DNA from: Candidatus Nitrospira inopinata
Lineage (GTDB): Bacteria > Nitrospirota > Nitrospiria > Nitrospirales > Nitrospiraceae
NCBI RefSeq assembly: GCF_001458695.1
Contig: NZ_LN885086.1
Span: 2,220,001 to 2,252,000 of the forward strand
DNA length: 32,000 bases
Reading direction: 5' to 3'
In this document: piece by piece, positions 1,251 to 27,983 of the stretch
Layout: each line of letters starts with the position of its first letter
Position numbering within the stretch: the first letter of the stretch is position 1
Position numbers and translations under genes: made by a program
The notes under the pieces: model-generated
The model's input: only the letters and a program-made list of their open reading frames with translations
Databases searched by the model: none
Told to the model about the DNA's origin: nothing

Positions 1251-1381
1251 ACAAAAGCGCGCAACATCGGATTAAGCAAGGTTCAAGGAAACTGCGGTGT
1301 TCGCAAGCGCGTGCGCGATGAGACAGGTTGTCGGTGCCGCTTGTGCTGCCGCATCTGGGACGGCTTTATGGAGGAGGCGAT

Positions 1382-1762
1382 ATGCCGGCTGATCTGACGA
1401 TGAAAGTGCTCGTCGTCGACGATATGGCGACGATGAGAAGGATCGTGAAGAACGTCCTGAAACAGCTTGGATTCAGTCGCGTGGAAGAAGCGGAAAACGG
1501 CGCGGAAGCCCTGCAAAAACTGCGGGCGGAGACCTATGGTCTTGTCGTGTCCGATTGGAACATGCCCGTCATGACGGGCATCGACATGCTGCGGGCGATC
1601 CGGTCCGATGAAAAGCTGAAATCGATTCCCGTGTTGATGGTGACGGCCGAGGCTCAGCAAGGCAATCTCATCGAAGCGATTCAAGCGGGGGTCAGCAATT
1701 ACATCGTCAAACCGTTTACCGCGGAAACGATGCAGGAGAAGCTGGGAAAAATTTTCAAGTAG
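1382..1762 (+). CDS. cheY: chemotaxis response regulator CheY
   Basis: Single receiver domain, near-colinear with E. coli CheY: VLVVDD, phospho-Asp in [24 protein letters not shown] 1382 is preceded by GGAGGAGG. The ORF-track start at 1328 is probably an upstream extension. Confidence 0.93.
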
Positions 1763-4721: not shown

Positions 4722-5273
4722 ATGATGGCCATGGCCGAGGAAACGGGCGGTCCCCGTGGATACCCGAACGATTCAACCGACGCCGATGAACTCCGGAGAC
4801 TGCGAGCGCATCAACGGGCATGGCGGGCGGTCGCTTCGTGCGCCGTGCGCCTCATTCCGATCTTGAATGAAGAAATGGCGTCCGTCACTCGGATGACCGA
4901 ACGCGCCGCGATGGAACTCGGAGCCCATCTTCAAGCATTGGCGGCAACGGAGGTTTCATCGCATCAAAAAGAACGCGCGGCAAGCGTTTCAAAAATCGTC
5001 ATGGCGCTGCAGTTTCAGGATATCGTCGGTCAAAAGTTGAACCATGTCGGCAAGGCGTTGAATGAGTGGCGCGGTCACCTGGATGACCTGCTTGACGCGA
5101 CTCAAGGCGAACGCGCGGCGGACCGGCTCGCGGACGTGGAAACGATCGAACGGAACCTGATCGCGATGGAGGTGCGGTGCTCCGATGTCTCGGCGTTGAA
5201 AGTTGCCGACCAAGAGCCTCCGGCGGACCGCGCGGCGCCGCCTCGGGCAACCGAATCGGTCACGCTGTTTTGA
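4722..5273 (+). CDS. minimal CheZ-like protein (candidate second CheY-P phosphatase)
   Basis: VTRMTERAAMELGAHLQAL aligns with E. coli CheZ VVQMTAQAAERALNSVE. KIVMALQFQDIVGQKLNHV (nt 5007-5033) keeps the catalytic D-x3-Q spacing of the CheZ FQDLTGQ box. It ends in ...ESVTLF. It lies directly upstream of a second cheY. Confidence 0.5.
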   Translation: MMAMAEETGGPRGYPNDSTDADELRRLRAHQRAWRAVASCAVRLIPILNEEMASVTRMTERAAMELGAHLQALAATEVSSHQKERAASVSKIVMALQFQDIVGQKLNHVGKALNEWRGHLDDLLDATQGERAADRLADVETIERNLIAMEVRCSDVSALKVADQEPPADRAAPPRATESVTLF

Positions 5274-5340
5274 GTGAGCCAATCGTCAGGACGGCAAAAT
5301 GCCTTGAAAAACCTGACCGTTGAAATCGGAGGATGAAAAG

Positions 5341-5709
5341 ATGGGAAAAACCGCGCTCGTCGTCGATGATTCGCCCACCATGCGCCAGATGGTCGCCTTC
5401 ACGCTCATGAACGCGGGGTTCACGGTGATCGAAGCCGAGCACGGAAAGGACGCCGTCAGGAAAATCGCCGGCAAAAAGATGGACATCGTCGTGACGGATC
5501 TCAATATGCCGGAGATGGACGGCATCGCGCTGATCAAGGAGCTGCGAAAGTCGGCCGATTTTAAGTACACCCCGATTCTGATGCTGACGACCGAATCAGC
5601 GGTCGAAAAAAAGATGGCGGGAAAGGAAGCCGGGGCCACCGGGTGGATCGTGAAACCGTTCAATCCGGACGTGTTGCTCGGCACGATCGCCAAAGTGCTG
5701 CCGGCGTAA
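5341..5709 (+). CDS. cheY: CheY-like single-domain response regulator (second CheY)
   Basis: Receiver motifs ALVVDDS, VVTDLNMPEMDG, LMLTTES and WIVKPF. ATG 5341 is 7 nt after GGAGGA. The ORF-track TTG 5320 is less likely. Confidence 0.9.
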   Translation: MGKTALVVDDSPTMRQMVAFTLMNAGFTVIEAEHGKDAVRKIAGKKMDIVVTDLNMPEMDGIALIKELRKSADFKYTPILMLTTESAVEKKMAGKEAGATGWIVKPFNPDVLLGTIAKVLPA

Positions 5710-5866: not shown

Positions 5867-8044
5867 ATGAGCAACGATTTCGAGCAATTCCAAGACGCGT
5901 TTTTTGAAGAGGCGGCGGAACATCTCGCGATCGTCGAGGAAGGGCTGCTTCAGTTGGAGCAACGTCCCGAAGATCTTGATCTCTTGAACAAGATCTTTCG
6001 CTCGGCCCATTCGATCAAGGGCGCAAGCGGCATGTTCGGCTTCGACGCCGTCGCTCAGTTTACGCACAAGATGGAGACGCTCTTGGATCTTCTTCGGAGC
6101 GGCAAAAAAATCGTCACGCCGAGCGTCGCGGATTTGCTGCTCAAGTCCACGGACTGTCTGAAAACGTTGATGGAGGGAGTGAAACTCAATGCGCCCGTGG
6201 ACGAGAACGTCGTGCAACGGCTCTCGACCGAGCTGGCCGCCGTCAGCGCGGGGGAGGGCGAACGAGCATCCGCCTCGCCGACGCCGGTCGCCGAATCGCC
6301 CGCTTCCTCGTCGGGGAGCGCCTATGACATTCGCTGGACTCCGCCGGAATGGCTCTTTCGGCGCGGGCTCGATCCGCTGCAGATCTTCAAAGAACTGACC
6401 CGCATCGGGAGCCTCAGCCGCGTGAACGTCGATACGTCTCGGCTGCCGGACCTCAACGACGTGAATCCCGAGGCCTGTTATCTGTCCTGGACCATGCGGC
6501 TGGAAACCGCCGCGTCGCGGAAAGAGGTGGAATCGGTCTTTGAGTTCGTCCGGGAAGACAGCGAGCTTTCGATCGAAGCGGTCACGGCTTCAACGTTCGC
6601 GCCTGAGCCCTCAGGCGCGAACGTTCGGCGCGATCCCAAGAACGCGACGCTCGAAATTTCCGATGGCGGACCGAAGTCGATCGGCGAGATTTTAGTCGAA
6701 AGCGGGGCGGTCTCCAAAGAGGCGTTGGAGCGGGCGTTGTCTCAACAGAAGCGGGTCGGCGAGATTCTGATCGAACAGAAAGCGGCGACGCCCCAGCAGA
6801 TCGAGCAGGCTCTGCAAACGCAACGGCAGATGGAGGCCGCGGCGCAGGCCAAGAAGGCCGACACGACGTCCATCCGCGTCGACACCGCCAAAATCGACAA
6901 ACTGATCAATTTGGTCGGGGAGCTGGTCATCACGCAGTCGATGTTGAGCGATTTGGGAACCCGTTTTGAGATGGGACAGGTTCACGTTCTGCTGGAGCGC
7001 ATCGCGCAACTGGAGCGGAACACGAGGGAAATCCAAGAGCGGGTCATGAGCATCCGCATGGTTCCGATCGGGACGGCGTTCAGCCGGTTCCCCAGGCTGG
7101 TCCGCGATTTGGCCGGGAAATTGGGGAAAAAAATCAACTTGGTGCTGTCCGGCGAAGAAACCGAGCTGGACAAAACCGTCATCGAGGCGATCGGCGACCC
7201 CTTGACGCATCTGGTGCGCAACGCCGCGGACCACGGGCTGGAAACGCCGGAAGAGCGGCTGGACAACAACAAACCGGAGACCGGTGTCATCAAGCTGCAC
7301 GCGTTTCACGAAGGGGGCAGCATCTGCATCACCGTCGAAGACGACGGGCGCGGCTTGAATCGAGATAAAATCCTTGCCAAGGCCGTCAAACAGGGGCTGG
7401 TTTCGGACGGCGCCGCGTTGTCGGACGATCAAATCTACCCGCTGATCCTGAGGCCCGGTTTTTCGACCGCCGACAAGGTTTCCGATCTGTCGGGGCGCGG
7501 CGTCGGCATGGACGTGGTGAAACGCAATATCGAGTCGCTGGGTGGGACCGTCTCCATCAAGACGGCGTACGGCAAGGGAACGGCGTTTACGCTCAAACTG
7601 CCGTTGACGCTCGCCATTATCGAGGGCATGACGATTCGGGTCGGACGGGAAACCTACATCGTTCCGATGTTGTCGATTCTGGAATCGATTCAACCGAGGC
7701 CGGAGGCGGTGAAAACCGTCGTCGGAAAGGGAGAACTGATCGATGTGAGAGGAATCTATCTGCCGGTGGTTCGGCTGTACGACGTCTTCAACTTGAAGCC
7801 GGAACACGTCGATCCGGAGAAAGCCATTCTTCTGATCTTGGAAACGGAAGGCGAGCGGGTGGCGGTGATGGTGGACGAGATTCTCGGCCAGCAACAGGTG
7901 GTCATCAAGAGCATGGAGCAAAACTTCCGCAAGGTGCAAGGGATCGCGGGAGCCACGATTTTGGGCGACGGGACCGTCGGATTCATCTTGGACGTCCGCG
8001 GCCTGTTGGAAATCGCGCGTCAAGGAACGCCGATGGCCGCGTAG
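5867..8044 (+). CDS. cheA: chemotaxis histidine kinase CheA
   Basis: P1/Hpt with the phospho-His box FRSAHSIKGASGMFGF. Dimerisation and HATPase domains are present (HLVRNAADHG, EDDGRGL, GRGVGMDVV). The C-terminal CheW-like P5 shows LGQQQVVIKS and ILGDGTVGFILDV. 725 aa. Confidence 0.97.
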   Translation: MSNDFEQFQDAFFEEAAEHLAIVEEGLLQLEQRPEDLDLLNKIFRSAHSIKGASGMFGFDAVAQFTHKMETLLDLLRSGKKIVTPSVADLLLKSTDCLKTLMEGVKLNAPVDENVVQRLSTELAAVSAGEGERASASPTPVAESPASSSGSAYDIRWTPPEWLFRRGLDPLQIFKELTRIGSLSRVNVDTSRLPDLNDVNPEACYLSWTMRLETAASRKEVESVFEFVREDSELSIEAVTASTFAPEPSGANVRRDPKNATLEISDGGPKSIGEILVESGAVSKEALERALSQQKRVGEILIEQKAATPQQIEQALQTQRQMEAAAQAKKADTTSIRVDTAKIDKLINLVGELVITQSMLSDLGTRFEMGQVHVLLERIAQLERNTREIQERVMSIRMVPIGTAFSRFPRLVRDLAGKLGKKINLVLSGEETELDKTVIEAIGDPLTHLVRNAADHGLETPEERLDNNKPETGVIKLHAFHEGGSICITVEDDGRGLNRDKILAKAVKQGLVSDGAALSDDQIYPLILRPGFSTADKVSDLSGRGVGMDVVKRNIESLGGTVSIKTAYGKGTAFTLKLPLTLAIIEGMTIRVGRETYIVPMLSILESIQPRPEAVKTVVGKGELIDVRGIYLPVVRLYDVFNLKPEHVDPEKAILLILETEGERVAVMVDEILGQQQVVIKSMEQNFRKVQGIAGATILGDGTVGFILDVRGLLEIARQGTPMAA
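6677..6823 (+). other. two tandem MshEN/T2SSE_N-like 24-residue motifs inside CheA (between the P2-like region and P3)
   Basis: SIGEILVESGAVSKEALERALSQQ and RVGEILIEQKAATPQQIEQALQTQ were compared with the published MshEN consensus RLGxx(L/V/I)(L/V/I)xxG(L/V/I)(L/V/I)xxxxLxxxLxxQ. The spacer here is 1 residue rather than 5. Confidence 0.5.
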
Positions 8045-8071
8045 CGACATGGATCGGACGGGAGCGGAACC

Positions 8072-8419
8072 ATGGCGTTGATGATCAACGATCACTGCAT
8101 CGCCTGCGACGCCTGTTTGCCGGCCTGCCCCAACCAAGCGATCTTCGACAGGCGCAGCGCCGCCGAATCGAAAGGCTATCGTGTCGCGGGGCGATTGGGA
8201 ATCAAGGACGACATTTACGTCATCGCGCACGAACGGTGCACCGAGTGCGTGGGTCATTTCGAGGAGCCGCAGTGTATGTCCGTCTGTCCGATCGGCGAAT
8301 GTTGCGTGCCGGATCCGGAGCGGCCGGAGTCGCGCATCGTGCTGCTGGAACGGGCCCGTCGCCTCCATCCGAACAAGACGATCGATCAAGACAAGGTATG
8401 GGCTGGGGTCAGAGGATGA
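8072..8419 (+). CDS. YfhL-type 2x[4Fe-4S] ferredoxin
   Basis: MALMINDHCIACDACLPACPNQAI (CxxCxxCxxxCP) plus CTECVGHFEEPQCMSVCP (CxxCx8CxxxCP), as in E. coli YfhL. There is an ~18-aa insertion between the cluster motifs. It starts 27 nt after the cheA stop. Confidence 0.85.
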   Translation: MALMINDHCIACDACLPACPNQAIFDRRSAAESKGYRVAGRLGIKDDIYVIAHERCTECVGHFEEPQCMSVCPIGECCVPDPERPESRIVLLERARRLHPNKTIDQDKVWAGVRG

Positions 8420-8560: not shown

Positions 8561-9076
8561 ATGGCGGCTGTAACGGCATTGGAAAGTTCGGTGAAGCAAC
8601 CGCACCAACCAAGCGGTGGGCACAGCGGCGCGGCGGACGGCAATCAATTGTTGACCTTCAAACTGGGCGACGAGCTGTACGGGGTGGATATTTTGCGTGT
8701 GCAGGAGATCAAGGGCTACACCACCGTCACCCGGATTCCCAACACCCCCGCCTATATCAAGGGCGTCATCAATCTCCGGGGCACGATCGTGCCGATCGTG
8801 GAGTTGCGGACGAAATTCGGAATGCCGACGATCGACGTGACCTCGTTCACCGTCATCATCGTGGTGGTCGTGCGGGAGAAGGTGATGGGGCTGGTGGTGG
8901 ACGCGGTCTCCGACGTGCTGACCATTGATCGGCAGGACATTCAGGCGCCGCCGGCCTTTGGGTCCAGGGTGGATGTGAGTTGCCTGAGCGGGATCGCCAA
9001 ATCGGGCGACAAACTGGTGGCGTTGTTGGATATCGATCGCCTGTTGGCGGACGGCGCCGCGGCGGACGGGGGATGA
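8561..9076 (+). CDS. cheW: chemotaxis coupling protein CheW
   Basis: LLTFKLGDELYGVDILRVQEIKGY, PAYIKGVINLRGTIVPIVELR, MGLVVDAVSDV and KLVALLDIDRLL. RBS GGAAGGAGGAG upstream. Confidence 0.95.
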   Translation: MAAVTALESSVKQPHQPSGGHSGAADGNQLLTFKLGDELYGVDILRVQEIKGYTTVTRIPNTPAYIKGVINLRGTIVPIVELRTKFGMPTIDVTSFTVIIVVVVREKVMGLVVDAVSDVLTIDRQDIQAPPAFGSRVDVSCLSGIAKSGDKLVALLDIDRLLADGAAADGG

Positions 9077-9204
9077 CAGATCTCGCTCCCTTATCGGATG
9101 CGGCATGGACGGGAGTCTGAGGAGAGCCGAAGCGTCTCTTCGGGTCAGGCGCAGAGACTGCGTCGCCCCGAGGAAGCGTGTCTTCGAGCAAAAGAGAGGA
9201 CAAT

Positions 9205-11625
9205 ATGCGGAACCTATTTGGGAGGAACATGAGAGGCATGAAAAATTTGAAAGAGTACGGTCAAGCTGCCGATCGCACGCAGGCCGTGCTCGAACTGGCC
9301 CCTGACGGGACGGTGGCGGCGGCGAATGATCGGTTTCTGATGCTCACGGGCTATGCCCTCGACGACATCAAGGGAAGGCATCACCGTCTCTTCTTCGACC
9401 AGGCGGAGGCGGACAGTCCGGAATATCGCGCGCTGTGGGAGCGGGTGCGTCGGGGTGAGGCCGAATCCCGAGTGATGAAATGGGTCGGCCAGAGCGGCAA
9501 GGCCGTTTGGCTGGCCGCCTCCTTGCTCCCGCTGGACGGGGGAGATCAGCCGAGGAAGATCCTCGTGGTCGCGACCGATGTGACGGCGCTCGCCACGGAG
9601 CTGGAAACGGTCAAGGAAGAACTCGCCGTCCGCCGGGCCATCATGGATCTCACCGGTGTCGTGTCGGAGGCTGATCTCAAGGGCAACATCATATACATCA
9701 ACGACTACTTTTGCCGGCTTTCCAAGTACAGTCGAGAAGAACTGCTGGGCACACCGCACAACATCGTACGGCATCCGGACATGCCCAAAGAGGTCTTCAA
9801 GCAGATGTGGGCCACGATTGGCCGGGGGCAGATCTTTCGGGGGGTGGTCAAGAACCGGGCCAAGGACGGCACCCCCTATTACGTGGACGCCGTCATTGCG
9901 CCGTTCGTGGACAAACAGACCGGCAAGCCCAAAAAGTATCTCGGCGTCCGCTACGACATCACCCAGTATGAGATGCAACGCCACAACATGCAGGGACTCA
10001 TGGACGCGATCAATCGGGCCTATGCCGTGATCGAGTTTCAGTTGGATGGCACGATTCTCACGGCCAATGACAAGTTTCTCACCACCACCGGCTATACCCT
10101 GGAGGAGATCCGGGGCCGGCACCATCGGCTCTTCTGCGACCCGGTGTATGCCGCCAGTCCGGACTATGCGGCGTTCTGGCAGAAGCTGGGGCGGGGGGAG
10201 TTCGAGGCGGGGGTCTATCGGCGGCTGGGCAAGGGGGGGCAAGAAGTGTGGCTGCAGGCCTCCTATAACCCCGTCAAGGACGAGATGGGCCGGCCGTTTA
10301 AGGTGGTGAAATTGGCGACGGACATCACGGCGCAGAAGCAGGCGCAAGCGGAAGTGGAACGGTTGATCAAAGCGGCCGCCGACGGGCATCTGTCCGACCG
10401 CATCGCGCTCGAACGTTTCGAGGGATCGGCCCGGGAACTGGTGGCCAGTTTCAATCAGTTGCTCGATGCCGTGGCCACGCCGCTTGCGGAGGTGCAGGCG
10501 GTGATGACGGCGGTGGGGGAAGGCGATCTCACCAAGCACATGACCGGCGACTATCGCGGAGACTTTGCCTCGATCAAAACCAGCACCAACACGGCCGTGG
10601 ATCAATTGACGCAGATGATCAGCACGGTGCGGGAAGCGGTGGAATCGGTCCGTTCCGGCTCGGAGCAGATCACCCAGGGGAGCGATGATTTGGCGCAGCG
10701 GACGAGCGAGCAGGCGTCGGCGTTGGAGGAGACGTCGGCGTCGATGGAGGAGATGACGGCGACGGTGAAACAGAACGCGGACAATGCGCGGCAGGCGGAG
10801 CAGTTGGCGCAGGCGGCGCGGGAGACGGCGGACAAGGGGGGGGTGGTGACGCAGCGGGCGGTGGCGGCGATGCAGGCGATTAATCAGAGCAGTGCGCAGA
10901 TTGCGGAGATCATCACGGTGATTGATGAGATTGCGTTTCAGACGAACCTGTTGGCGCTCAACGCGGCGGTCGAGGCGGCGCGGGCGGGGGAGCATGGGCG
11001 GGGGTTTGCGGTGGTGGCGGCGGAGGTGCGGAATTTGGCGCAGCGGTCGGCGACGGCGGCGAAGGAGATCAAGGGGTTGATTCAGGCGTCGCTCTCGCGG
11101 GTGACGGAGGGCAGTGCGTTGGTGAATCAGGCGGGCAAGACGTTGGAGGAGCTGGTGCAGGCGGTCAAGCGGGTGACGGACATCATGGCGGAGATCAGCG
11201 CGGCCAGTCAGGAGCAGGCGAGCGGGATCGAGCAGGTGAACAAGGCGGTGATGGCCATGGACGACACCACCCAGCAAAACGCCGCCCTCGTCGAACAACT
11301 CACCAGCGCCAGCCAGTCGCTCAAGATGCAGGCGGACGATTTGCTCCGGCGCGTGCAGAAGTTCACCTGCCGCGTCACCGAAGAGCAAAAGGCCCGTATG
11401 CCGGAGATCGACAACCTCAGAAAATCCGTCGCCGGCTCGGTGCATCGTGTCTATGGGGGAAAAAAAGGATCATCGACTCAGGGCTCCAGTCGCGTGTCAA
11501 CGACGACGACAGGGCTTGCCGATAGCCAAGACCTCGATGAGACCCCGATGGCCGAGACCGGCGCTGGAATCGGAGCGGGCGCTCATCGGCCTGAGAAAAA
11601 CATCGATGACTTTGAGGAGTTCTGA
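9205..11625 (+). CDS. soluble multi-PAS methyl-accepting chemotaxis protein (PAS, Aer-type PAS, PAS, HAMP, MA)
   Basis: No TM segment. It has three PAS modules, two of them with the GRHHRLF signature. A HAMP-like segment ([22 protein letters not shown]) is followed by the MA domain ([41 protein letters not shown]). It ends in DDFEEF. ATG 9205 follows GAGAGGA; GTG 9178 is possible. Confidence 0.95.
9637..9966 (+). other. Aer-type (FAD-binding class) PAS domain within MCP 9205-11625
   Basis: [54 protein letters not shown] closely parallels E. coli Aer [52 protein letters not shown]. Confidence 0.7.
10028..10346 (+). repeat. PAS-coding block duplicated in the downstream MCP gene (copy A)
   Basis: Aligns without gaps to 12983-13301 (offset 2955 nt). 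I counted roughly a dozen mismatches by eye, about 96% identity. Confidence 0.9.
10683..11318 (+). repeat. 636-bp MA-domain block nearly identical in the downstream MCP gene (copy A)
   Basis: Aligns without gaps to 13521-14156 (offset 2838 nt). Only two differences were seen (aaa/aag and agt/agc), both synonymous. The flanks diverge abruptly. Confidence 0.95.
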
Positions 11626-11642
11626 GCGCGTCAACGTGCGTG

Positions 11643-11664
11643 CAGGACATGGGCAGGACATGGG
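11643..11664 (+). repeat. perfect 11-bp tandem direct repeat (caggacatggg x2) in the mcp-mcp intergenic region
   Basis: Read directly: tgCAGGACATGGGCAGGACATGGGattg, ~80 nt upstream of ATG 11743. Confidence 0.8.
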
Positions 11665-11742
11665 ATTGATCAGACACGCAACCGGACGTAACGGATTTGT
11701 ACCCCGCGCAACTCGACGGGTCAGTTTACCGGAGGGAGGCCT

Positions 11743-14397
11743 ATGCTGAACCGATTCCTGAACTTGAGCATCAAATCCAAGCTGCTCGTTGCTTGCGGGA
11801 TTTCCGGCATCATGCTCGTGATGCTCGGGGGCATGGCCTTTTTCGGCATGAATCGCCTCAGCGGTCAGACGGAATTCATCTATAAAACGAACGTCAATTC
11901 GTTGATGTTGTTGAGCGATCTGCGCGCGGATTTGGCGCGCCGATCGAATCACGTTCTCTGGCACATTTTGGCGCAGGATCCCGCCGCCATGAAGGAACAG
12001 GAGCGGAAGATCCATGACCTTGACCAAACGATCGAACGGCTGACGGAACAGTACGAGCCGCTCATCGTGACGGAATCCGAACGGGCGACCTATGACCGGC
12101 TCAAGAAGAGCGGCGCGGAGATCAAAGAAGCGCGCGAGAAGGTGTTGGCCTTGAGCAGAAGTTTCAAGAAAGAGGCGGCGGCGGACGTGCAGCGCACCGA
12201 GATGGCCGAGAAACTGGCCGAGCTCTTCCGAGCGGTTGATGGATTGGTCGAGGAAAATGACAAGCAGGCGAAAGAGAGCTACGCCGCCAGTCTGAGTCTC
12301 AGCGCCACCCTGAATTGGACCTTGATCGCGTTGAACCTCGGGGCCTTGTTGATCGGGGCCTGGGCGTTGCGGTTCGTGTCGAACATCATCGTTGAGAACC
12401 TCACAAACGTCTTGGATGCGGCTCAGCAGCTCCAGCAGGGCCATCTGACCCACCGGGCCACCGTAGCGACGGGAGATGAAATCGGAAAATTGGCGAGATC
12501 ATTCAATCAGATGGCCGAGACGTTGCAGCAAGCCGCAGTCAAGCAGGAAGAGGCCCTCAAGGCCCAAGCGGCCGAGCTCAATGGCATGACCAGAGCCATC
12601 GATCGGGCGCAGGCCGTGATCGAGTTTGCTGTGGACGGGACGATCCTCTCAGCCAACGAGAATTTTCTCGCCACCATGGGCTATAGCCTCGATGAGATCA
12701 AAGGTAAGCATCACCGGCTCTTCTGCGAGCCGGCCTCTGCTCAGAGCCGGGAATACGCAGATTTTTGGGAAAAACTGAGCCGAGGAGAAGTACAAGCTGG
12801 TGTCTATCGTCGGGTAGGCAAGGGAGGCAAAGAGGTCTGGATTCGGGCCTCATACAGCCCGATCAAAGATGCAAATGGCAAGGTTTCAAAGATTGTTGAA
12901 TTTGCGACCGACATCACGGCGGAACAGAAACGCCAAGCCGAGTTCGAGGGACTGCTCAGCGCCATCAATCGTCAATACGGCATGATCGAGTTTCAGTTGG
13001 ATGGCACGATTCTCACGGCCAACGACAAGTTTCTCACCATCACCGGCTATACCCTGGAGGAGATCCGGGGCCGGCACCATCGGCTCTTCTGCGACCCGGG
13101 GGATGCCGCCAGTCCGGACTATGCGGCGTTCTGGCAGAAGCTAGGGCGCGGGGAGGCGGAGGCGGGGGTCTATCGGCGGCTGGGCAAGGGGGGGCAAGAA
13201 GTGTGGCTGCAGGCCTCTTATAACCCCGTCAAGGACGAGATGGGCCGGCCGTTTAAGGTGGTGCAGTTGGCGACGGACATCACGGCGCAGAAGCAGGCGC
13301 AGGTGGAGTTGGAGGCCTGCATGGCCGAGGCGCGAGAGGCGTTGGGGGCCGTGGCGGCGGGGGATTTGACCCGGCCGATGACGGGCACCTACGGAGGGGA
13401 GTTGGCCACGATCACGGCCAGTGTGAACGAGACCGTGGCGCAGTTGACGCGGACCTTGGCGGCGGTGCGGGGGGCGGTGGAGACGGTGACGGCGGGGGCG
13501 GAGGAGATCACCAAGGGCAACGATGATTTGGCGCAGCGGACGAGCGAGCAGGCGTCGGCGTTGGAGGAGACGTCGGCGTCGATGGAGGAGATGACGGCGA
13601 CGGTGAAGCAGAACGCGGACAATGCGCGGCAGGCGGAGCAGTTGGCGCAGGCGGCGCGGGAGACGGCGGACAAGGGGGGGGTGGTGACGCAGCGGGCGGT
13701 GGCGGCGATGCAGGCGATTAATCAGAGCAGCGCGCAGATTGCGGAGATCATCACGGTGATTGATGAGATTGCGTTTCAGACGAACCTGTTGGCGCTCAAC
13801 GCGGCGGTCGAGGCGGCGCGGGCGGGGGAGCATGGGCGGGGGTTTGCGGTGGTGGCGGCGGAGGTGCGGAATTTGGCGCAGCGGTCGGCGACGGCGGCGA
13901 AGGAGATCAAGGGGTTGATTCAGGCGTCGCTCTCGCGGGTGACGGAGGGCAGTGCGTTGGTGAATCAGGCGGGCAAGACGTTGGAGGAGCTGGTGCAGGC
14001 GGTCAAGCGGGTGACGGACATCATGGCGGAGATCAGCGCGGCCAGTCAGGAGCAGGCGAGCGGGATCGAGCAGGTGAACAAGGCGGTGATGGCCATGGAC
14101 GACACCACCCAGCAAAACGCCGCCCTCGTCGAACAACTCACCAGCGCCAGCCAGTCCATGAAAGTCCAGGCCCAAGAACTGCTGCGACATATCGAGGTTT
14201 TCAAGTTCAATGAAACGGGAAGGCGTCACGACCGTCAGGACGGGGGCTCCAAGGCTCAGGATAAAGAGCCGATGACCGGCGGCTCTTTCCATGGGGCCGT
14301 GGATCGAGCGGTGTCGCGGTCGCAAGAGCCCGTGGGTGTCGCCGGGCAGACCGACAGGAGCCGATCCGTTGGGTCTGAGGAGTTCGATGAGTTTTAG
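11743..14397 (+). CDS. transmembrane methyl-accepting chemotaxis protein (4HB-type periplasmic sensor, HAMP, PAS, PAS, HAMP-like, MA)
   Basis: TM1 is [24 protein letters not shown] helical ~150-aa periplasmic region follows, then TM2 [27 protein letters not shown] shows [18 protein letters not shown]. Two PAS modules carry GKHHRLFC and GRHHRLFC. The MA domain protein sequence is identical to the upstream MCP over 212 aa. It ends in EEFDEF. RBS GGAGGGAGG. Confidence 0.95.
12983..13301 (+). repeat. PAS-coding block (copy B of 10028-10346)
   Basis: See copy A. Confidence 0.9.
13521..14156 (+). repeat. 636-bp MA-domain block (copy B of 10683-11318)
   Basis: See copy A. Confidence 0.95.
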
Positions 14398-14469
14398 GGA
14401 TTTTTCAGGAATTGATTGATCGGCCGGTGTCGTATCCATGGACGAAGATGTAAAGAACAGGAGGAAGCC

Positions 14470-14844
14470 ATGGTTCACAAAGAAGAGATTATGAAAGCCA
14501 TCAGTGCGCACGGTCTGTGGAAAAGCCGTTTGACCCGGGCGATTGAAACAGGAAAAACGGATGCGACGGTCGAAACGGTTCGTGCCGATAATCAGTGCGC
14601 GTTCGGCAAATGGCTCCATGGCATGACGTTGGATGCCAAGGACAAACTGTCGCCCCATTACAAAGAAGTCCGAGCGTTGCACGCCAAGTTCCATGAGGTC
14701 GCCTCTCATGTGTTGGAGTTGGCGTTATCGGGGAAAAAACAAGAGGCGCAGCGATTGCTCTCGCTTGACGGAGAGTACGCCAAGGTGTCGTCACAACTCA
14801 CGACCGCCATGTCCGCGTGGACCAAGAGCCTGCCGGCGCAGTGA
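14470..14844 (+). CDS. stand-alone CZB (chemoreceptor zinc-binding) domain protein
   Basis: AHGLWKSRL ... DNQCAFGKWLHG ... HYKEVRALHAKFHEVASHV is the His/Cys signature and four-helix pattern of CZB domains, as in H. pylori TlpD and E. coli DgcZ. ATG 14470 follows AGGAGGAAG. The ORF-track start 14416 is an extension. Confidence 0.75.
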   Translation: MVHKEEIMKAISAHGLWKSRLTRAIETGKTDATVETVRADNQCAFGKWLHGMTLDAKDKLSPHYKEVRALHAKFHEVASHVLELALSGKKQEAQRLLSLDGEYAKVSSQLTTAMSAWTKSLPAQ

Positions 14845-16469: not shown

Positions 16470-17549
16470 ATGGCGAAAATTCGCGTTCTGACGATCGATG
16501 ACTCGGCGCTCATGCGGCAAGTGTTGGCGGCGTTGTTGTCGCATGATCCGGAGATTGAAGTGGTCGGATCGGCGCCGGACCCCTACATCGCCCGAGAAAA
16601 AATCAAGGCCTTGAATCCCGACGTCCTGACCTTGGATGTCGAGATGCCCAAGATGGACGGGCTGACCTTCCTTGAGAAATTGATGCGAGGCCATCCGATG
16701 CCGGTCGTCATGGTGAGCACCTTGACCGAAGCCGGTTGCGAAACCACTCTGCGGGCGCTCGAACTCGGCGCGGTCGATTTCATCACCAAACCGAAAATCG
16801 ACGTTCAAAAGGGTATGAGCGACGTCGCGCAAGACTTGATCGACAAGGTCAAATCCGCCGCGTGCGCGAAGGTGAGGAGCAAGGGATCGGAGGCGAGGGG
16901 ACAGTCGGGCTTCGAAGCATTTCCCCCCGCTTCGCATCCCTCAGGCCTCGCGCCTCAAGGGGCGATGCTCAAAACGACCGATACGATCATCGCCATCGGC
17001 TCGTCGACCGGAGGAACCGAAGCGGTGAAGGACATTCTGACGGCGCTTCCGGCTCACACACCACCCATTCTGATTACGCAACATATGCCGCCCCGGTTTA
17101 CTCGGACATGGGCTGAGCGGCTGAATAGCCTGTGCCGCATCTCCGTCAAGGAGGCGGCGGACGGCGACAGTGTGCTGCCGGGCCACGCTCTGGTAGCCCC
17201 AGGAGGGTATCACATGGTCTTGGACCGCAATGGCGCCCGTTACACGGTTCGGGTTAACCAGGATCCGCCGGTGAATCGGCATCGACCGTCGGTCGATGTG
17301 TTGTTCGATTCGGTAGCGAAATACGCGGGCCGCAACAGCATCGGAGTGATTTTGACGGGAATGGGAGGCGATGGAGCCAAGGGGTTGCTGGCCATGAAGC
17401 AGGCGGGCGCTTCGACGATCGCGCAGAACGAGGCAAGCTGCGTGGTTTTCGGCATGCCGAAAGAGGCCATCAAGCTCGGCGGGGTGGACAAGGTGCTTCC
17501 GCTCGGCGACATTGCCGGTGCGGTGATGGAGTGTGTCGGGCGGCAGTGA
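16470..17549 (+). CDS. cheB: chemotaxis methylesterase/deamidase CheB (REC plus esterase)
   Basis: REC motifs: [38 protein letters not shown]. Esterase motifs: [34 protein letters not shown] 16470. Confidence 0.95.
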
Positions 17550-17580
17550 AAAGACCGGCGAGATAAAAAAGGAGGCAATC

Positions 17581-17931
17581 ATGGCGTTGCAAGTACGGGA
17601 GCGTTCCATGCCCAACGGGGTGATCCTTGAGTTAGCGGGGGATCTGACCTATGCGAACCGCGAACAATTCAAGACGGCCGTGGAGTCGGTTCGCCAGCGG
17701 GGGGTCCGGCATCTGGTGTTGGATATGTCGAGTGTGCGGTTCATCGACAGTTCCGGCCTGGGACTGTTGGCGCTGGTGGCCCAGCAATTCAAATTGACGC
17801 AAGGACGGTTGAGTTTGTTGAAGCCCCAGGCGTACGTGCGGGAAATCATGGCGCTGGCCAACATTCCGTCGTTGATCCCCATGTACGAAAGCGAGCAGGA
17901 TGCCGTGGCCTCCTGTGCGAAAGCGGCGTAG
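17581..17931 (+). CDS. STAS-domain anti-sigma-factor antagonist (SpoIIAA/RsbV family)
   Basis: VILELAGDLTYANREQFKTAV, HLVLDMSSVRFIDSSGLGLLAL (the conserved phosphorylatable Ser lies in DSSGLG) and LSLLKPQAYVREIMAL. ATG 17581 follows AAGGAGG. Confidence 0.85.
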   Translation: MALQVRERSMPNGVILELAGDLTYANREQFKTAVESVRQRGVRHLVLDMSSVRFIDSSGLGLLALVAQQFKLTQGRLSLLKPQAYVREIMALANIPSLIPMYESEQDAVASCAKAA

Positions 17932-17971
17932 GGACGCAGGAGTGTTTTGATGCCGAAACAAGCGAGACACG

Positions 17972-19201
17972 ATGAAGCCATCTTGTCCTCACGATGATCC
18001 GATCGGCCGGTCTGGAGCCGCCGAGGAGACAGCCGTCAAGGAGCGCCAGACGGTGCTCATCGTGGATGACGATCCGGTGGCCCGCTTGGCCATGACCGGC
18101 AGGGTGAAACGGCTCGGTTACCGCGTCCTTGAAGCCGCCGATGGGCGAAGCGGTCTTGAACTCCTCCGGCGTGAGCGGCCGGAACTGACCATTTTGGATT
18201 GGATGATGCCCGATCTGGACGGACCGTCGTTTTGTGAGCAGGTGCGCGACGATCCAGAGGTCGGCTCAAGCCAAATCCTCATGATGACGAGCAACGATCA
18301 CCCCGAACACATCGCGGAGGGGTTGGCGCGCGGGGCGGATGATTTTTTAAGCAAGGCGGCGAGCCGTCAAGAGATCATCGCCAGGGTCCAGGCCGGGATC
18401 AGAGCGGCGCTGTTGATTCGTCAGTTGGAACAGGTCACGGACGAGTTGCGGAGCAAACAGGCGTTGTTGGACGAGGAGCTACAATCGGCCGCCCGCTATG
18501 TGGAATCTCTTTTGCCGATGCCGGGCATCGTGCTCCCCGGCGTCGAACTGGCTCATCTCTACCGTCCTTCGCTGGCGCTGGGCGGTGATTTGTACAACGT
18601 CGTTCGATGTGGCGATGACTCAGTGGGACTCTATTTGCTCGATGCCTCTGGACACGGGGTGTCGTCGGCCCTTCGGTCCGCCGCTCTTGCCACGTTTCTG
18701 CGGGAGGACAGTCTGCTGCGTTACGTCGGCTCTCGCGATCCCGGCGCCATTGTGACGGAGGCCAACCGGCTGTTTCCCCTGACGGAACGGGGCGACTATT
18801 TCACGATTCTCGTCGCGCGGCTGGATCTGCGATTTCAGCGGCTGCTCTATGCCACGGCCGGTCACTCCGGAGCTTGTGTTCATCGGCGGGGGGGAACGAT
18901 GGAATGGTTTGTGCCGCCCAGCCTGCCCTTGGGATTTGCCCCGGGTCAGCGCTATCGCACCGTGGAGATCGGTTTTCTGCCCGGCGACCGCTTGTATGTG
19001 ATGAGCGATGGCCTCTATGAAATTCCCAATTCGACCGGAGAACTGTGGGGCAAAGAGCGACTGGGGTTCGCTTTGAAAGAGGCAGCCGGCCGACCATTGC
19101 AGGATGCCCTGTCTCATGCTGTTGCGGAGGCGGCGCGATGGTCCGGTCAGAATTGCTTTCCGGACGACGTGGCGGTGATGGGGATTGAGCTGAAGGCATG
19201 A
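17972..19201 (+). CDS. response regulator with PP2C/SpoIIE-type serine phosphatase output (RsbU-like)
   Basis: The REC domain is intact: LIVDDD, ILDWMMPDLDG, LMMTS, FLSKA. A coiled linker follows, then the PP2C domain: LGGDLYNV, YLLDASGHGVSSAL, YATAGHS, YVMSDGLYE, DDVAVMGIEL. Confidence 0.9.
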   Translation: MKPSCPHDDPIGRSGAAEETAVKERQTVLIVDDDPVARLAMTGRVKRLGYRVLEAADGRSGLELLRRERPELTILDWMMPDLDGPSFCEQVRDDPEVGSSQILMMTSNDHPEHIAEGLARGADDFLSKAASRQEIIARVQAGIRAALLIRQLEQVTDELRSKQALLDEELQSAARYVESLLPMPGIVLPGVELAHLYRPSLALGGDLYNVVRCGDDSVGLYLLDASGHGVSSALRSAALATFLREDSLLRYVGSRDPGAIVTEANRLFPLTERGDYFTILVARLDLRFQRLLYATAGHSGACVHRRGGTMEWFVPPSLPLGFAPGQRYRTVEIGFLPGDRLYVMSDGLYEIPNSTGELWGKERLGFALKEAAGRPLQDALSHAVAEAARWSGQNCFPDDVAVMGIELKA

Positions 19202-19238
19202 CGGCGTGTGCCATGAATCGAGGTCGGCGAGGTGACGG

Positions 19239-19598
19239 ATGAATCGTAATACCGTGTTTGATCTCCGGGAGGCGCTGAGTCGTATTGATGATGACCGCGA
19301 GACGCTTCACGCGATGATCGAGGTGTTCTTGGAGCAAGGTCCTCAGGATCTGGCGGCGGTTCGAGAGGCGTTGGATCGGCGAGATGCGGCCGCCGCGGCG
19401 CGATTCGCTCATCGATTAAAAGGATCGGCCCTTCAGTTTTGCGCGGATGCGGCGGTGGAGGCGGCGAAGGCGGTGGAAGCGGCGGGAAAAGGCGGCGACG
19501 TGGAAGAAACGGACAGACTGTTTCGGAAACTCGAAACCGAGGCGGCCCGCCTCTTCGAGGCGCTTCGCGCGGAGTTGGGCGGGGACCTGGCGGCATGA
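19239..19598 (+). CDS. single-domain histidine phosphotransfer (Hpt) protein
   Basis: 119-aa all-helical protein with the Hpt box FAHRLKGSALQFCA. GAGG sits 6 nt upstream of ATG 19239. Confidence 0.8.
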   Translation: MNRNTVFDLREALSRIDDDRETLHAMIEVFLEQGPQDLAAVREALDRRDAAAAARFAHRLKGSALQFCADAAVEAAKAVEAAGKGGDVEETDRLFRKLETEAARLFEALRAELGGDLAA

Positions 19599-20494
19599 AG
19601 ACGGAACGATCGTCCTGCAGGGTGTTGCTCGTGGATTCTTCCCGCGATCTTCAGGCGGATCTGGCCCGTGACGCCGAGCGGCTGGGGTTCACGTTGATTG
19701 CGGCATCAGGTCCGTCGGAGGCGGTGGCCTCGTTTGAACGGGAAGTCCCCGACGTGGTGATCACCGATTTATTCTCGTCCGATGAAGCCGGCCTCGCCTT
19801 GATTGAAGAGCTGAGAAGTCGCGGCGAAACCTGCCCCGTGGTCGTGATCGCGGCGGAGGCGTCGGGGGCCATGGTCGCCAAGGCGTTCCGCGCGGGGGCG
19901 ACGGATTATCTGCAAAAGCCGATCATCACGGAAGAGTTCACCCGCGTGCTGACCCGTGTTCGGCGCGTGGCGGCTCGGGCCGCGGCTCCGCTGCCCGGTT
20001 TGCTGACGTTCGAGCAGCGGCTCGTTCTGGCAAGCGACGTGAGCTTCGTTGAAGAAACGGTCCTCTGGTTGATACAGATGACGGCCATGATGGTGCCGGA
20101 GACGGCGCGAGCGGGCCTGCGCGGCGCGCTTCAGGAGTTGCTTCTCAACGCCGTGGAACATGGGAATCTTGAAATTTCCCATGAGGAGAAAAAACTCGCG
20201 GTGGCGGAAGGCCGATATGACCGCTTGCTGTCGGAGCGATCGGCCCGGTCGGCGCTCAGAGGTCGATGCGTCATCGTGGAAGTCTCCTACGACGCTGGAG
20301 CGCGTCGACTAAAGTATCGCGTTGCCGACCAAGGAGGGGGATTCGATTGGCGGGCGATGGTGGCGAAGAAGCCGGGCCTGGATGGATCGGTGGAGGGAAG
20401 CGGACGAGGGGTATTGCTCATACGGTCCCTGTTTCCCGATCTCTGCTATAACGAGCGGGGCAACGAGGCAACGTTTACGGTTCCTCTCGATTAG
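19595..20494 (+). CDS. receiver domain fused to an RsbW/SpoIIAB-like HATPase serine kinase (anti-sigma-type kinase)
   Basis: REC motifs: RVLLVDSS, VVITDLFSSDEAG, VVVIAAEAS, YLQKP. The C-terminal GHKL ATPase shows N box ELLLNAVEHGN, G1 VADQGGGFD and G2 GSGRGVLLIRSL. ATG 19595 overlaps the Hpt stop (ATGA). The ORF-track start 19439 lies inside the Hpt gene. Confidence 0.75.
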   Translation: MKTERSSCRVLLVDSSRDLQADLARDAERLGFTLIAASGPSEAVASFEREVPDVVITDLFSSDEAGLALIEELRSRGETCPVVVIAAEASGAMVAKAFRAGATDYLQKPIITEEFTRVLTRVRRVAARAAAPLPGLLTFEQRLVLASDVSFVEETVLWLIQMTAMMVPETARAGLRGALQELLLNAVEHGNLEISHEEKKLAVAEGRYDRLLSERSARSALRGRCVIVEVSYDAGARRLKYRVADQGGGFDWRAMVAKKPGLDGSVEGSGRGVLLIRSLFPDLCYNERGNEATFTVPLD

Positions 20495-20570: not shown

Positions 20571-21524
20571 TCAAAACACCCGTAGATATTTGACGGTGCA
20601 GTGGCCTTTGTCCGCGTCTCGGTGCAAGACGACGAAGGCGTTCTTGACCGATTCATTGACCGTGATGGTGAGCCGGGCCGAAAAATAGTCGCTCTTGACG
20701 TCGTACACGGACCCGGATGCGCGCAACTTGGCGCCGATGTCCACGAAGCTCCCGATGCGGTTCAACTCCTCTTTGGTTTTGTAGGGGCGCCCCTGCACGA
20801 TTTCCGAGGCCATCGTCGGCGTGATGTCCGGGTCGAGAGCCTGGATGACGGCCGGCTCGGCCGTGTTGATGTTCACCGGCGCGCCGCCTTCGATCGGGTA
20901 CACGGTGACGTAGCGCGCGAGCCGATCGATGATGTCGGGCGTAAACCCTTTGATCAGCCGTAAATCGTTGATCGCCTGGAGCGGGCCGTTGGCGGCCCGA
21001 TAGGCGGGCCGCAACGATTGGTAGTGCAGGCTTTCCGCGCCGGTCGGTCTTGGGTTGTCATCCTGATCGAGCCAATCGATCAGGGCGTCGACCAGGTCGG
21101 GATTGATCTGAAGCAATTCGAAGAGCCGACGGATTCGGTCGATGCGGGTTTTGGATTGGATCGGGTCGTCGGCGGAAGCCACAAGATCGTTGAGATTCAG
21201 TTTGCCGCGCTCGTCCTGAATTTGGGCGCTCAACAATCCGTCGCCGATCGCGTAATTCTTGATCGGGAGCGCCCACAGGTCGAGCGGGCCGTCGAACCGT
21301 TCGCCGCTTCGTTTGTCGCGCAAAAAATCCCGTTGAAGAGCCGCGCTCGCCGCTTGAATGGCCGCGCGCGTCAACGTGCCGGACTTGACATGGTCGCGGA
21401 ACGCGGCCGCTTCGCGGTATTCGCGCCGCGCTTCCGCGTCGAATTCAAGAACGATCGCCGTCAGGAGCGCCAGCGCAAGCAGGGCAAGCAGCAGCGCGAT
21501 TCCTCGTTCATCGGCTTTTCGCAT
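20571..21524 (-). CDS. gspK: type II secretion minor pseudopilin GspK
   Basis: N-terminal RGIALLLALLALALLTAIVL lacks Glu at +5, as in GspK. Also AQIQDERGKLNLNDL, TGAESLHYQSLRPAYRAANGPLQAINDLRLIKGFT and PVNINTAEPAVIQAL. Confidence 0.85.
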   Translation of the reverse strand: MRKADERGIALLLALLALALLTAIVLEFDAEARREYREAAAFRDHVKSGTLTRAAIQAASAALQRDFLRDKRSGERFDGPLDLWALPIKNYAIGDGLLSAQIQDERGKLNLNDLVASADDPIQSKTRIDRIRRLFELLQINPDLVDALIDWLDQDDNPRPTGAESLHYQSLRPAYRAANGPLQAINDLRLIKGFTPDIIDRLARYVTVYPIEGGAPVNINTAEPAVIQALDPDITPTMASEIVQGRPYKTKEELNRIGSFVDIGAKLRASGSVYDVKSDYFSARLTITVNESVKNAFVVLHRDADKGHCTVKYLRVF

Positions 21525-22059
21525 AACTCAGCACCCGGAGCGTCGCTTCCAGGTTGACGGGGTCGTCGAATTTCGGGCGGATTTTCAAGTGACGGACTTG
21601 CAGGTCATAGGGCGCTTGGTCGATCGTCACGAGCAGATTCAGCAACTCCGGCAACTGTACGCCGTCCAGCCGGAGATCGACCGCCGTTTCTTCATATCCC
21701 GAGGGGAGCGTTTGAACCTGCGGCTGCATGCCGGCGATCCGGTCCCGCACGCGGGCCGTACCGGCGGCCTCCTCCATAAAAGCCAGCAGAGAAAAGTGAC
21801 CGCCCGCCTCCGGCAGACGTTGCTCGGTTTGCGAGAGACGCGCTCGTTTGACCGCGTACTCCTGGCTCAAGGCGGCCAATTCCTGAAGGTCTTTGCGCTT
21901 GCGCGCTTCCTGGCGGACCAGCCGGTCGTACGAGTCGAGCAGGGGGTCGACGACGAGCGCGAAGAGCAGGCCGAGGCCGACGACGATGCCGCCGACGAGC
22001 ACGATCGTTCGCTCGCGAGGAGAAAGCTGCCGCCAGCGTTCTTGGAGACTCTGCATCAT
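21508..22059 (-). CDS. gspM: type II secretion protein GspM
   Basis: 183 aa. WRQLSPRERTIVLVGGIVVGLGLLFALVVDPL is the GspM-type N-terminus with a single TM. A C-terminal ferredoxin-like region follows. The ATG overlaps the gspL stop (ATGA). Confidence 0.7.
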   Translation of the reverse strand: MMQSLQERWRQLSPRERTIVLVGGIVVGLGLLFALVVDPLLDSYDRLVRQEARKRKDLQELAALSQEYAVKRARLSQTEQRLPEAGGHFSLLAFMEEAAGTARVRDRIAGMQPQVQTLPSGYEETAVDLRLDGVQLPELLNLLVTIDQAPYDLQVRHLKIRPKFDDPVNLEATLRVLSYAKSR

Positions 22060-23639: not shown

Positions 23640-23737
23640 CGATCAACCTTACAGAAGTGACGAGGATTCCGCGCGCGATGATTCACGTTTCCGGAAAATG
23701 CTCCTCCCCCGTCGAAATCGGAAACGTCCCCGCTACT

Positions 23738-24622
23738 TTACAATGCGATCCTGGGTTGTGCCAATGGGCCGACGATCTTGACGGTGATCGGCGAGCCGAC
23801 CGGGAGCGGAGGCAGCCCCAGGGCAGGGGCCTTCGCGGCAAATCCGGTTCCAGGCACAAGGGTCAGGGTCAAGGCCAGTTGGCTGTTCCGAATCGGATTC
23901 TGAATCGTGAGGGTTCCCTCTCCCGTGAACGATCCGTCGATTCCCTCGCCGTTGAGCACCGCCACCCTGCACACGCCGTCTCGACACTCCACGCCGATGG
24001 AGATTGTTGTGAACGTCAGCGACAGGGTTCGTCCGTTGCCCAGCGGGATGCGATCGATAGCGACGTCCGTCGCCTCGGCTTTCCACGTCCCTTCTCCGCC
24101 GATCTGTTGGGAGACGGGATGGGTCGATTCGACACGGTATGCAAACTCGCCGTCGATCACGCCGCGACTGACGTACCGGCCGAACAACCGAGACAAATCG
24201 ACGCGCTGAAGCCGCCCCGTCGCCGACCACGGCCCCTGCGCTGCCAGCGAGGAAGCCGACAGGCTGACGCGGGTCAGTCCGGCCGCGGGCGAGGCGGCGT
24301 CGGATCTGGCGCTAACGTCGAGAGCAAGGGTGCCGCCCAACGCCTGAAGCAGACCGACGTTTGCCTTGAGTAGGGCGAGTTCGATGGGGTCCCACTCGGG
24401 CAAGGACAAGGAGACCCGCCGCCATTCGATTCCCATCGGCCATGCGACCGACCACTCCTCCGCCCGGATGGTGATTCCGGTCGTCCGGTTCAGTTCGGAC
24501 GCGAGTCTCGTCTGCAACGCGTCGTAGGGAAAGGTCGCGATCAGGCCGAACCCGAGCGTGCCGAGTCCGATCGCGATCCACACGAGTCGTTCCTTTCGAG
24601 CGTCGAGCCGGGTTCCGATCAT
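23738..24622 (-). CDS. gspN: GspN-like type II secretion protein
   Basis: Single N-terminal TM (LVWIAIGLGTLGFGLIATFPYDAL) followed by a beta-rich periplasmic region with GspN-like length and pattern. ATG 24622 overlaps the gspJ stop (ATGA). The call rests on context and composition. Confidence 0.5.
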   Translation of the reverse strand: MIGTRLDARKERLVWIAIGLGTLGFGLIATFPYDALQTRLASELNRTTGITIRAEEWSVAWPMGIEWRRVSLSLPEWDPIELALLKANVGLLQALGGTLALDVSARSDAASPAAGLTRVSLSASSLAAQGPWSATGRLQRVDLSRLFGRYVSRGVIDGEFAYRVESTHPVSQQIGGEGTWKAEATDVAIDRIPLGNGRTLSLTFTTISIGVECRDGVCRVAVLNGEGIDGSFTGEGTLTIQNPIRNSQLALTLTLVPGTGFAAKAPALGLPPLPVGSPITVKIVGPLAQPRIAL

Positions 24623-25236: not shown

Positions 25237-25651
25237 AGGTGCTGACTTCGACCGTTTCTTCGGTTCTTCCTCGCGGCCAGGAGATCGTCACCCGAACCTC
25301 CCGAACCAACTCAAGCGGCGTCGGCGCGATCGTTTGTTTCCATCGATACCCCGCCGGCCGGTCCGACGTACGGTCGACCATGGGCGCGCCGAGCGGCGGC
25401 ATTCGGAATTCTCCCGTGGTTTCTCCGATGGGGTATAGGCCGGCCAATTCGGTTTCCAGCAGTTTTTCCTGCGCCAGGAGCGTCGCCGTGGTCAACTCGC
25501 GCGCGCGATGATGAAGGTCGATGTCGAAGTTGCGGAGACCGAGGAGAACGGGCAGCGCGATCGCCAGCAGAGCGACGGCCAGCATCACTTCCAGCAGGGT
25601 GAATCCGCTCTCGCGAGAGAAGGTGGTCGGCATGTCGTACGGCGCCGTCAT
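25211..25651 (-). CDS. gspI: type II secretion minor pseudopilin GspI
   Basis: Prepilin-type N-terminus SRESGFTLLEVMLAVALLAIALPVLL. 146 aa. ATG 25651 overlaps the gspH stop (ATGA). The longer ORF-track start 25981 runs through gspH and is rejected. Confidence 0.8.
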   Translation of the reverse strand: MTAPYDMPTTFSRESGFTLLEVMLAVALLAIALPVLLGLRNFDIDLHHRARELTTATLLAQEKLLETELAGLYPIGETTGEFRMPPLGAPMVDRTSDRPAGYRWKQTIAPTPLELVREVRVTISWPRGRTEETVEVSTYVFAGNAF

Positions 25652-26238: not shown

Positions 26239-26250
26239 ATTCGATGCCGC

Positions 26251-27981: not shown

Positions 27982-27983
27982 GG

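Follow-up and report, generated by a model that had tools for sequence, protein, structure and literature searches.

Several described relatives of the element treated here, a tandem motif in CheA, the chemotaxis kinase of Candidatus Nitrospira inopinata, are N-terminal regulatory domains in ATPases of type II secretion systems (T2SS) and type IV pili (T4P). The cheA gene lies in a 32,000-nt stretch of contig NZ_LN885086.1 (positions 2,220,001 to 2,252,000), referred to as the window, and all coordinates are counted from its first letter. By analogy with characterized receptors, we consider it likely, on balance, that residues 271-319 of this CheA are a receptor module of the MshEN_N type and bind cyclic di-GMP (c-di-GMP).

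Vibrio cholerae MshE (MshEN; 5HTL) and the GSPII domains of Thermus thermophilus PilF (6f8l, 8pdk) have, as has CheA, a tandem 24-residue motif (RLGxxhhxxGhhxxxxLxxxLxxQ; h, hydrophobic). The Gly, hydrophobic and Gln contact positions are common to these domains and the CheA module, and sequence and profile similarity are significant. In the ATPases, the motif pair is followed by MshEN_C, whereas CheA has the MshEN_N half alone, placed in the tether of a histidine kinase. The inter-motif loop of the CheA module is 4 residues shorter, and two motif positions are changed (S for R, K for G).

The isolated MshEN_N (residues 1-65 of V. cholerae MshE) is sufficient for c-di-GMP binding (Wang et al. 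2016, Nat Commun 7:12481, PMC5013675). In the same study, MshEN was reported to associate with CheA. The architecture HPT-P2-MshEN_N-P3-P4-P5 is already listed in its Supplementary Table 4 (Actinobacteria and Proteobacteria only), and according to its Supplementary Table 6, fragment 261-390 of Aeromonas veronii CheA binds c-di-GMP with a dissociation constant (KD) of 2.6 µM, measured by isothermal titration calorimetry. This CheA has the same domain order as that of N. inopinata, with the module directly before P3. Its motif 1 likewise lacks the leading Arg (MLG..., with Met in this position), yet it binds. The two proteins differ in spacer length (~9 residues in the gammaproteobacterial A. 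veronii, 1 residue in the member of the Nitrospirota). Because both the CheA-MshEN_N architecture and binding by a CheA fragment have been known since 2016, the novelty implied by an earlier note on this DNA was overrated. The additions made here are modest: a short spacer is the commonest form in the sampled CheAs, this form occurs in several phyla, and a member from Nitrospirota is described.

Other c-di-GMP receptors with this module, but on partners other than an ATPase, have been validated. Bdellovibrio Bd2402 and Escherichia coli NfrB have sub-canonical spacers of 3 and 4 residues, respectively. Their output domains are distinct from those of CheA (a glycosyltransferase in NfrB), and their spacers are still longer than 1 residue. 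c-di-GMP is known to reach chemotaxis or motility in several other ways, namely through the motor brakes YcgR and FlgZ, MapZ-CheR1 in Pseudomonas aeruginosa, PilZ-containing chemoreceptors such as Cbp1 and Tlp1, and binding to the CA domain of the kinase CckA. These act at the motor, the methyltransferase, the receptor or the catalytic domain of a kinase other than CheA, whereas the candidate receptor module described here lies inside CheA and is of the MshEN rather than the PilZ type.

The tandem motif and its relation to MshEN_N

The region 6677-6823 (+) translates in frame into SIGEILVESGAVSKEALERALSQQKRVGEILIEQKAATPQQIEQALQTQ, which corresponds to CheA residues 271-319 and consists of two 24-residue halves. 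The earlier note had read this segment as two tandem MshEN-like motifs, SIGEILVESGAVSKEALERALSQQ-K-RVGEILIEQKAATPQQIEQALQTQ, and the translation agrees exactly. Wang et al. (2016) gave a relaxed motif with 11 constrained positions, [RKPN]hGxxhhxx[GAS]hhxxxxhxxxhxx[QNKRYWST], and both halves fit 10 of these. The two mismatches had also been pointed out correctly: S271 at the start of motif 1 and K305, which replaces the central (turn) Gly in motif 2. When the CheA sequence was shuffled, a tandem pair of the same quality was obtained in 1 of 20,000 cases.

The ligand-contact residues of MshE can be assigned one by one. R9, L10, G11, L25, L29 and Q32 correspond to S271, I272, G273, L287, L291 and Q294 in motif 1; R38, L39, G40, L54, L58 and Q61 correspond to R296, V297, G298, I312, L316 and Q319 in motif 2. 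The equivalents of the essential glycines (G11, G40) and of the hydrophobic and Gln contacts are all kept in N. inopinata CheA. The leading Arg is present in motif 2 (R296), while motif 1 has S271, which is outside the relaxed [RKPN] set and is preceded by K270. In MshE, binding by the variants G11L and G40I is weak or absent, and mutation of the hydrophobic residues results in a more than 10-fold loss of affinity (PMC5013675). Substitution of the arginines costs less than 5-fold (PMC5013675), and for this reason, S271 is probably a mild defect.

Profile and sequence comparisons point in the same direction. The NCBIfam model NF053729 ([quoted passage not shown]; 53 positions, curated cutoff 38 bits) matches CheA aa 272-319 with its positions 2-53 (44.7 bits, E=8.3e-12), and an isolated 89-aa piece of CheA scores 51.3 bits. 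A phmmer search with this piece against PDB retrieved T. thermophilus PilF (6f8l, E=8e-14), chains of the PilF ATPase annotated as "c-di-GMP binding domain" (8pdk and others, E=1.7e-5 and ~2e-5) and V. cholerae MshE (5htl, E=0.01). When 18 CheA modules were compared to 12 bona fide MshEN_N sequences by hhalign, the probability was 99.3% (E=2e-20), and the sole gap was a 4-residue deletion in the inter-motif loop of the CheA modules. The MshEN-type identity proposed in the earlier note is thereby borne out, and there is strong support at the sequence level for true homology between residues 271-319 and the c-di-GMP-binding module MshEN_N.

This identity might also be attributed to chance, the segment being a Gln/Glu/Leu-rich helical linker or coiled coil. 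It is indeed short, helical and rich in Q, E and L, and Pfam PF05157 (MshEN/T2SSE_N), which had been named for a check by hidden Markov model, has no match in CheA even at E<=10, nor in the 89-aa piece. However, PF05157 turned out to be the wrong test. In the GspE protein of the window, it matches aa 76-155, downstream of the NF053729 match at aa 17-68. Its failure is uninformative for membership in MshEN_N, because the model covers the region past the c-di-GMP motifs, and CheA holds only the MshEN_N half, without MshEN_C. A chance likeness is effectively refuted by the NF053729 match (E=8e-12), the hhalign probability of 99.3% and the rarity of the tandem motif among shuffles, and also by the conservation of the Gly, Gln and hydrophobic positions across several phyla and by the unrelated Ala/Pro linker that canonical CheAs have in this place (see below).

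The only Pfam signal on the MshEN_N segment is DUF4388, which is below threshold (window 6617-6883 (+), 23.6 bits vs 25, profile positions 21-78) and reaches E<=1e-3 in 5 of 62 related CheAs. An element resembling MshEN_N may thus be part of DUF4388.

GspE itself (27984-29726, -) has an MshEN_N motif with the canonical spacer at aa 17-68 (LLGRILGERF...GGRLGEVLLNL...), which scores 38.8 bits against the cutoff of 38. The gene is surrounded by a T2SS cluster (~20571-30752) that codes for GspC, E, F, G, I, J, K and a PilM-like L. The window thus codes for two candidate c-di-GMP receptors, CheA and GspE, and CheA has the higher score on NF053729.

Conservation, spacer length and taxonomic spread

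With CheA aa 262-400 as query, a HMMER scan of 1.84 billion representative proteins resulted in 3,145 matches at E<=1e-3. In this survey of homologues for the insert, which the earlier note had proposed, the tandem motif is present in 104 among the best 150 of these matches. Full-length motif carriers were confirmed as CheAs by Pfam, giving a set of 62 diverse proteins (Hpt in 60, H-kinase_dim in 62, HATPase_c in 59 and CheW in 58) that are 32-74% identical to the query. Across this set, no columns are better conserved than those that correspond to the ligand contacts of MshE. G273 and Q319 are found in 62 of 62, G298 in 61, L316 in 58 and Q294 in 57 proteins, and positions 272, 287, 291, 297 and 312 are hydrophobic in all. 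Among 120 CheAs from Nitrospira, which are 73-100% identical, the module is almost invariant, and the linker preceding it (aa 241-269) is hypervariable in sequence and length. The CheA module is under strong purifying selection.

The 1-residue spacer had been listed as a caveat. Its length was given correctly, but it is not peculiar to this protein. Among the 104 motif-bearing representatives, the spacer has 1 aa in 46 and 2 aa in 27, with 5-9 aa in most others. Spacers of 1-2 residues account for 73 of the 104 modules and are the most frequent form in this sample. That the 1-residue spacer is an oddity or an error of N. inopinata CheA is ruled out, since it is the modal state among the sampled CheA-embedded modules. 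In this sample, the short-spacer form occurs in Nitrospirota, Methylomirabilis, Desulfobacterota/Geobacter, spirochaetes, Planctomycetota and Armatimonadia.

GTDB species genomes were also scanned. Carriers were encountered in Nitrospirota, Methylomirabilis, Spirochaetales, Planctomycetota, Geobacter, Desulfovibrionaceae, other Desulfobacterota and Armatimonadia, and in all carrier loci, the tandem motif is found 18-31 aa ahead of the P3 anchor. In CheAs of Enterobacterales, Burkholderiales and many Gammaproteobacteria, the position of the module is taken by a linker rich in Ala and Pro, in line with the earlier claim that the insert is foreign to canonical CheA. Gene order (cheY-cheA-cheW-mcp-cheR-cheD-cheB) is alike around carriers and non-carriers. 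A rough neighbour-joining tree was built from the P3-P5 core, without bootstrap support; the carriers are found in one part of it, with two non-carriers nested among them. This grouping suggests that the module is an old acquisition that was occasionally lost.

CheA and the surrounding chemotaxis cluster

The product of the open reading frame (ORF) at 5867-8044 is 100% identical to CheA of Candidatus Nitrospira inopinata and matches the NCBIfam CheA equivalog PRK10547 with E=2e-180. It is a CheA, having P1 with the acceptor His, P3, P4 and P5, and being encoded in a che cluster. The phospho-acceptor His48 of P1 is part of FRSAHSIKG and is invariant in 75 homologues. The domain order is P1, P2-like domain, module, P3, P4, P5. 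The P2-like domain was assigned from its position and predicted fold alone, because the Pfam scan of the protein returned no match to P2. With this domain at aa 150-240 and H-kinase_dim at aa 334-396, the module is located between the P2-like domain and the dimerisation domain, where the earlier note had placed it. The features are listed below, with structural data from AlphaFold2 (AF2) and its predicted local distance difference test (pLDDT) scores.

5320-5709 (+): cheY, directly upstream of cheA; Pfam Response_reg; the CheY-CheA adjacency is conserved in related loci
5867-8044 (+): cheA, ORF of 725 aa; Pfam Hpt, H-kinase_dim, HATPase_c and CheW
5876-6250 (+): P1 (Hpt) domain, aa 4-128; Pfam Hpt at aa 10-99; five-helix region in AF2, pLDDT 80-93
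6314-6586 (+): P2-like alpha/beta domain, aa 150-240; strands and helices at 151-239 in AF2, pLDDT 74-90
6587-6673 (+): variable, probably disordered linker, aa 241-269; AF2 pLDDT <50; hypervariable in the 120 Nitrospira CheAs
6677-6748 (+): MshEN_N motif 1, aa 271-294, SIGEILVESGAVSKEALERALSQQ
6749-6751 (+): one-residue spacer, K295, which replaces the canonical 5-residue loop (4-residue deletion in hhalign)
6752-6823 (+): MshEN_N motif 2, aa 296-319, RVGEILIEQKAATPQQIEQALQTQ
6824-6865 (+): short connector, aa 320-333, which prolongs the last module helix and leads to P3; AF2 helix 309-328, then loop to 339
6866-7054 (+): P3 dimerisation domain, aa 334-396; Pfam H-kinase_dim, E=1.2e-19
7199-7609 (+): P4 ATP-binding kinase domain, aa 445-581; Pfam HATPase_c and PDB matches to CheA P4
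7622-8011 (+): P5 CheW-like domain, aa 586-715; Pfam CheW, E=2.4e-28
8561-9076 (+): cheW, downstream of cheA, coupling protein of the same pathway; Pfam CheW, E=4e-39

An antisense ORF (6692-8389, -, 565 aa) that matches no family extends over most of cheA. We regard it as a probable shadow ORF, given the GC-rich coding DNA.

The cheA gene is flanked by cheY, cheW, genes for methyl-accepting chemotaxis proteins, cheR, cheD, cheB, cheZ and motAB. The adjacent CheY (5320-5709) is expected to be the phosphoryl acceptor from CheA. A second cheY gene is found at 1328-1762 (+). There are also two CheZ-like genes (+), a clear cheZ at 1792-2418 and a weak candidate at 4722-5273 (E=1.5e-4, below cutoff). 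The motAB genes are located between the two CheY/CheZ-like sets, an arrangement that is the same in three Nitrospira loci (L001-L003).

Between cheA and cheW, the window contains a gene for a YfhL-family 2x[4Fe-4S] ferredoxin (8072-8419, +; NF033683, 94 bits vs cutoff 86). Of the loci compared, two others have a homologue: in Nitrospira locus L001, it likewise separates cheA from cheW, and in L004, it is found downstream of cheA. The ferredoxin may be a redox input to the chemotaxis pathway.

Two large multi-PAS chemoreceptors are encoded after cheW, within 9178-14844 (+). One (9178-11625) has PAS domains and HAMP, with no match to a ligand-binding or transmembrane-associated domain; the other (11743-14397) is of the 4HB-HAMP-PAS type. 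They are followed by a gene for a small CZB (zinc-binding) protein (14416-14844). Directly after cheB, the region 17533-20494 (+) codes for a STAS protein, a response regulator-PP2C (SpoIIE) phosphatase and a response regulator-HATPase_c_2 anti-sigma-type kinase. This partner-switching set, which has homologues in locus L002, suggests that the chemosensory cluster has a second output, other than the motor.

Putative c-di-GMP binding and its possible consequences for CheA

If CheA is a c-di-GMP receptor, two helix-turn-helix hairpins would each hold one guanine of the ligand, mostly by hydrophobic contacts. From the A. veronii CheA fragment, we infer an affinity that is about micromolar or better. 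The module is an insertion in the P2-P3 tether, ~15-20 residues ahead of the dimerisation domain. Because of this fixed distance to P3, ordering by the ligand would be expected to alter how far P1-P2 reach towards P4 or how they are oriented to it, or to act on the P3/P4 hinge. Ligand-induced folding or rigidification of the tether next to this hinge would change the access of P1 to the ATP site in P4. The phosphorylation of CheY would then become dependent on the cellular c-di-GMP level, and with it the switching of the flagella. We have a weak preference for inhibition of the kinase output at high c-di-GMP.

Several observations weigh against binding. The spacer has 1 residue, and the validated receptors that were checked have 3 (Bd2402), 4 (NfrB), 5 (MshE and others) or ~9 (A. 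veronii CheA). The Ser at the start of motif 1 is unique to the N. inopinata lineage among the 62 diverse CheAs (K or R in 45 of 62), and motif 2 has Lys where the turn Gly is expected. Structure prediction, a check named in the earlier note, gave a divided answer. In the AF2 model of full-length CheA (mean pLDDT 63.7), P1 and the P2-like region 151-239 are confident, the linker 241-269 is disordered, and the module consists of four separate helices (272-279, 284-291, 297-303 and 309-328), with a pLDDT of just 59-76. When the module was modelled by AF2 on its own (aa 266-330, pLDDT 86), helices 2 and 3 were merged (284-303), and there was no compact bundle. A Foldseek search with the isolated model against PDB gave nothing significant, the best match being PilB-N of Xanthomonas citri (E=4, TM score 0.40). 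A signature search of the window revealed no gene with GGDEF, EAL or HD-GYP, and genes for c-di-GMP enzymes are not enriched near module-bearing cheA loci (1/33 vs 4/47). A search of the available literature library, including reviews, yielded no study of the effect of c-di-GMP on an MshEN-bearing CheA, the 2016 paper being the only one on such CheAs that it retrieved.

It should be added that Pro occupies position 296 in 26 of the 62 related CheAs, so that helices 2 and 3 are probably interrupted as a rule in this family, which favours the hairpin-hairpin arrangement. The four separate helices of the full-length AF2 model speak for binding as well. Furthermore, at least one Nitrospira is reported to encode a GGDEF/EAL protein (PMC8553950).

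Some of the same observations would be accounted for if the module were a degenerate MshEN_N that does not bind nucleotides and that, within the P2-P3 tether, has a structural role or contacts other proteins, for example by docking a PilZ-like adaptor. The 1-residue spacer is beyond the experimentally validated range, the isolated AF2 model departs from the canonical bundle, and genes for c-di-GMP enzymes were not found near the CheA module in the window. Moreover, MshEN homologues that do not bind are known among the N-domains of GspE/XpsE, such as XpsE, and the N-terminal domain of X. citri PilB docks PilZ; the top, though not significant, Foldseek match is to this PilB(N-terminal)-PilZ complex (7lko). 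However, XpsE has lost key residues (G11V, G40L, L29R, L54H and Q61V), and exactly these positions are the most conserved ones in the CheA modules across several phyla. The CheA segment also scores higher on NF053729 (44.7-51.3 bits) than the N-terminal module of GspE from its own genome (38.8 bits). We regard this reading as unlikely, though it is the strongest of the rivals.

Very improbable, in our view, is a preference for another cyclic dinucleotide, e.g., 3',3'-cyclic GMP-AMP (cGAMP), over c-di-GMP. V. cholerae MshEN does bind cGAMP, if weakly (KD 330 µM vs 0.5 µM), the changed spacer could reshape the binding pocket, and the short-spacer family includes CheAs from Geobacter, a genus known for cGAMP signalling. 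However, the contact residues are the c-di-GMP-type set, the only CheA-embedded module that has been assayed (A. veronii) binds c-di-GMP, and there is no evidence in hand for cGAMP signalling in Nitrospira. The reading as a c-di-GMP receptor remains the one that we prefer.

It is tempting to speculate that the short-spacer CheA module represents an old subfamily of MshEN_N in its own right. A turn of 3-4 residues may still allow the canonical intramolecular bundle, but if the loop is too short to fold back in this way, the two hairpins could instead pair between the subunits of the CheA dimer, just above P3, and one c-di-GMP might bridge the two subunits or change their register, gating the kinase directly. 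We consider this scenario doubtful and rather improbable. If it were true, a switch operated by a second messenger would be built into an entire clade of chemosensory pathways, with a mechanism that is not described for the MshE-type ATPases.

The CheA-MshEN_N module is not an Aeromonas curiosity, as its carriers among the sampled CheAs belong to several phyla and are found in one part of the rough P3-P5 tree. Because of this spread, the question raised in 2016, i.e., how c-di-GMP affects CheA, applies broadly. If the module binds c-di-GMP and alters the kinase output, the central kinase of chemotaxis would read the signal for the motile versus sessile state directly, and an adaptor, a motor brake or a receptor domain would not be needed. 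In Nitrospira, a biofilm-forming nitrifier, flagellar navigation would thus be tied to the decision to settle.

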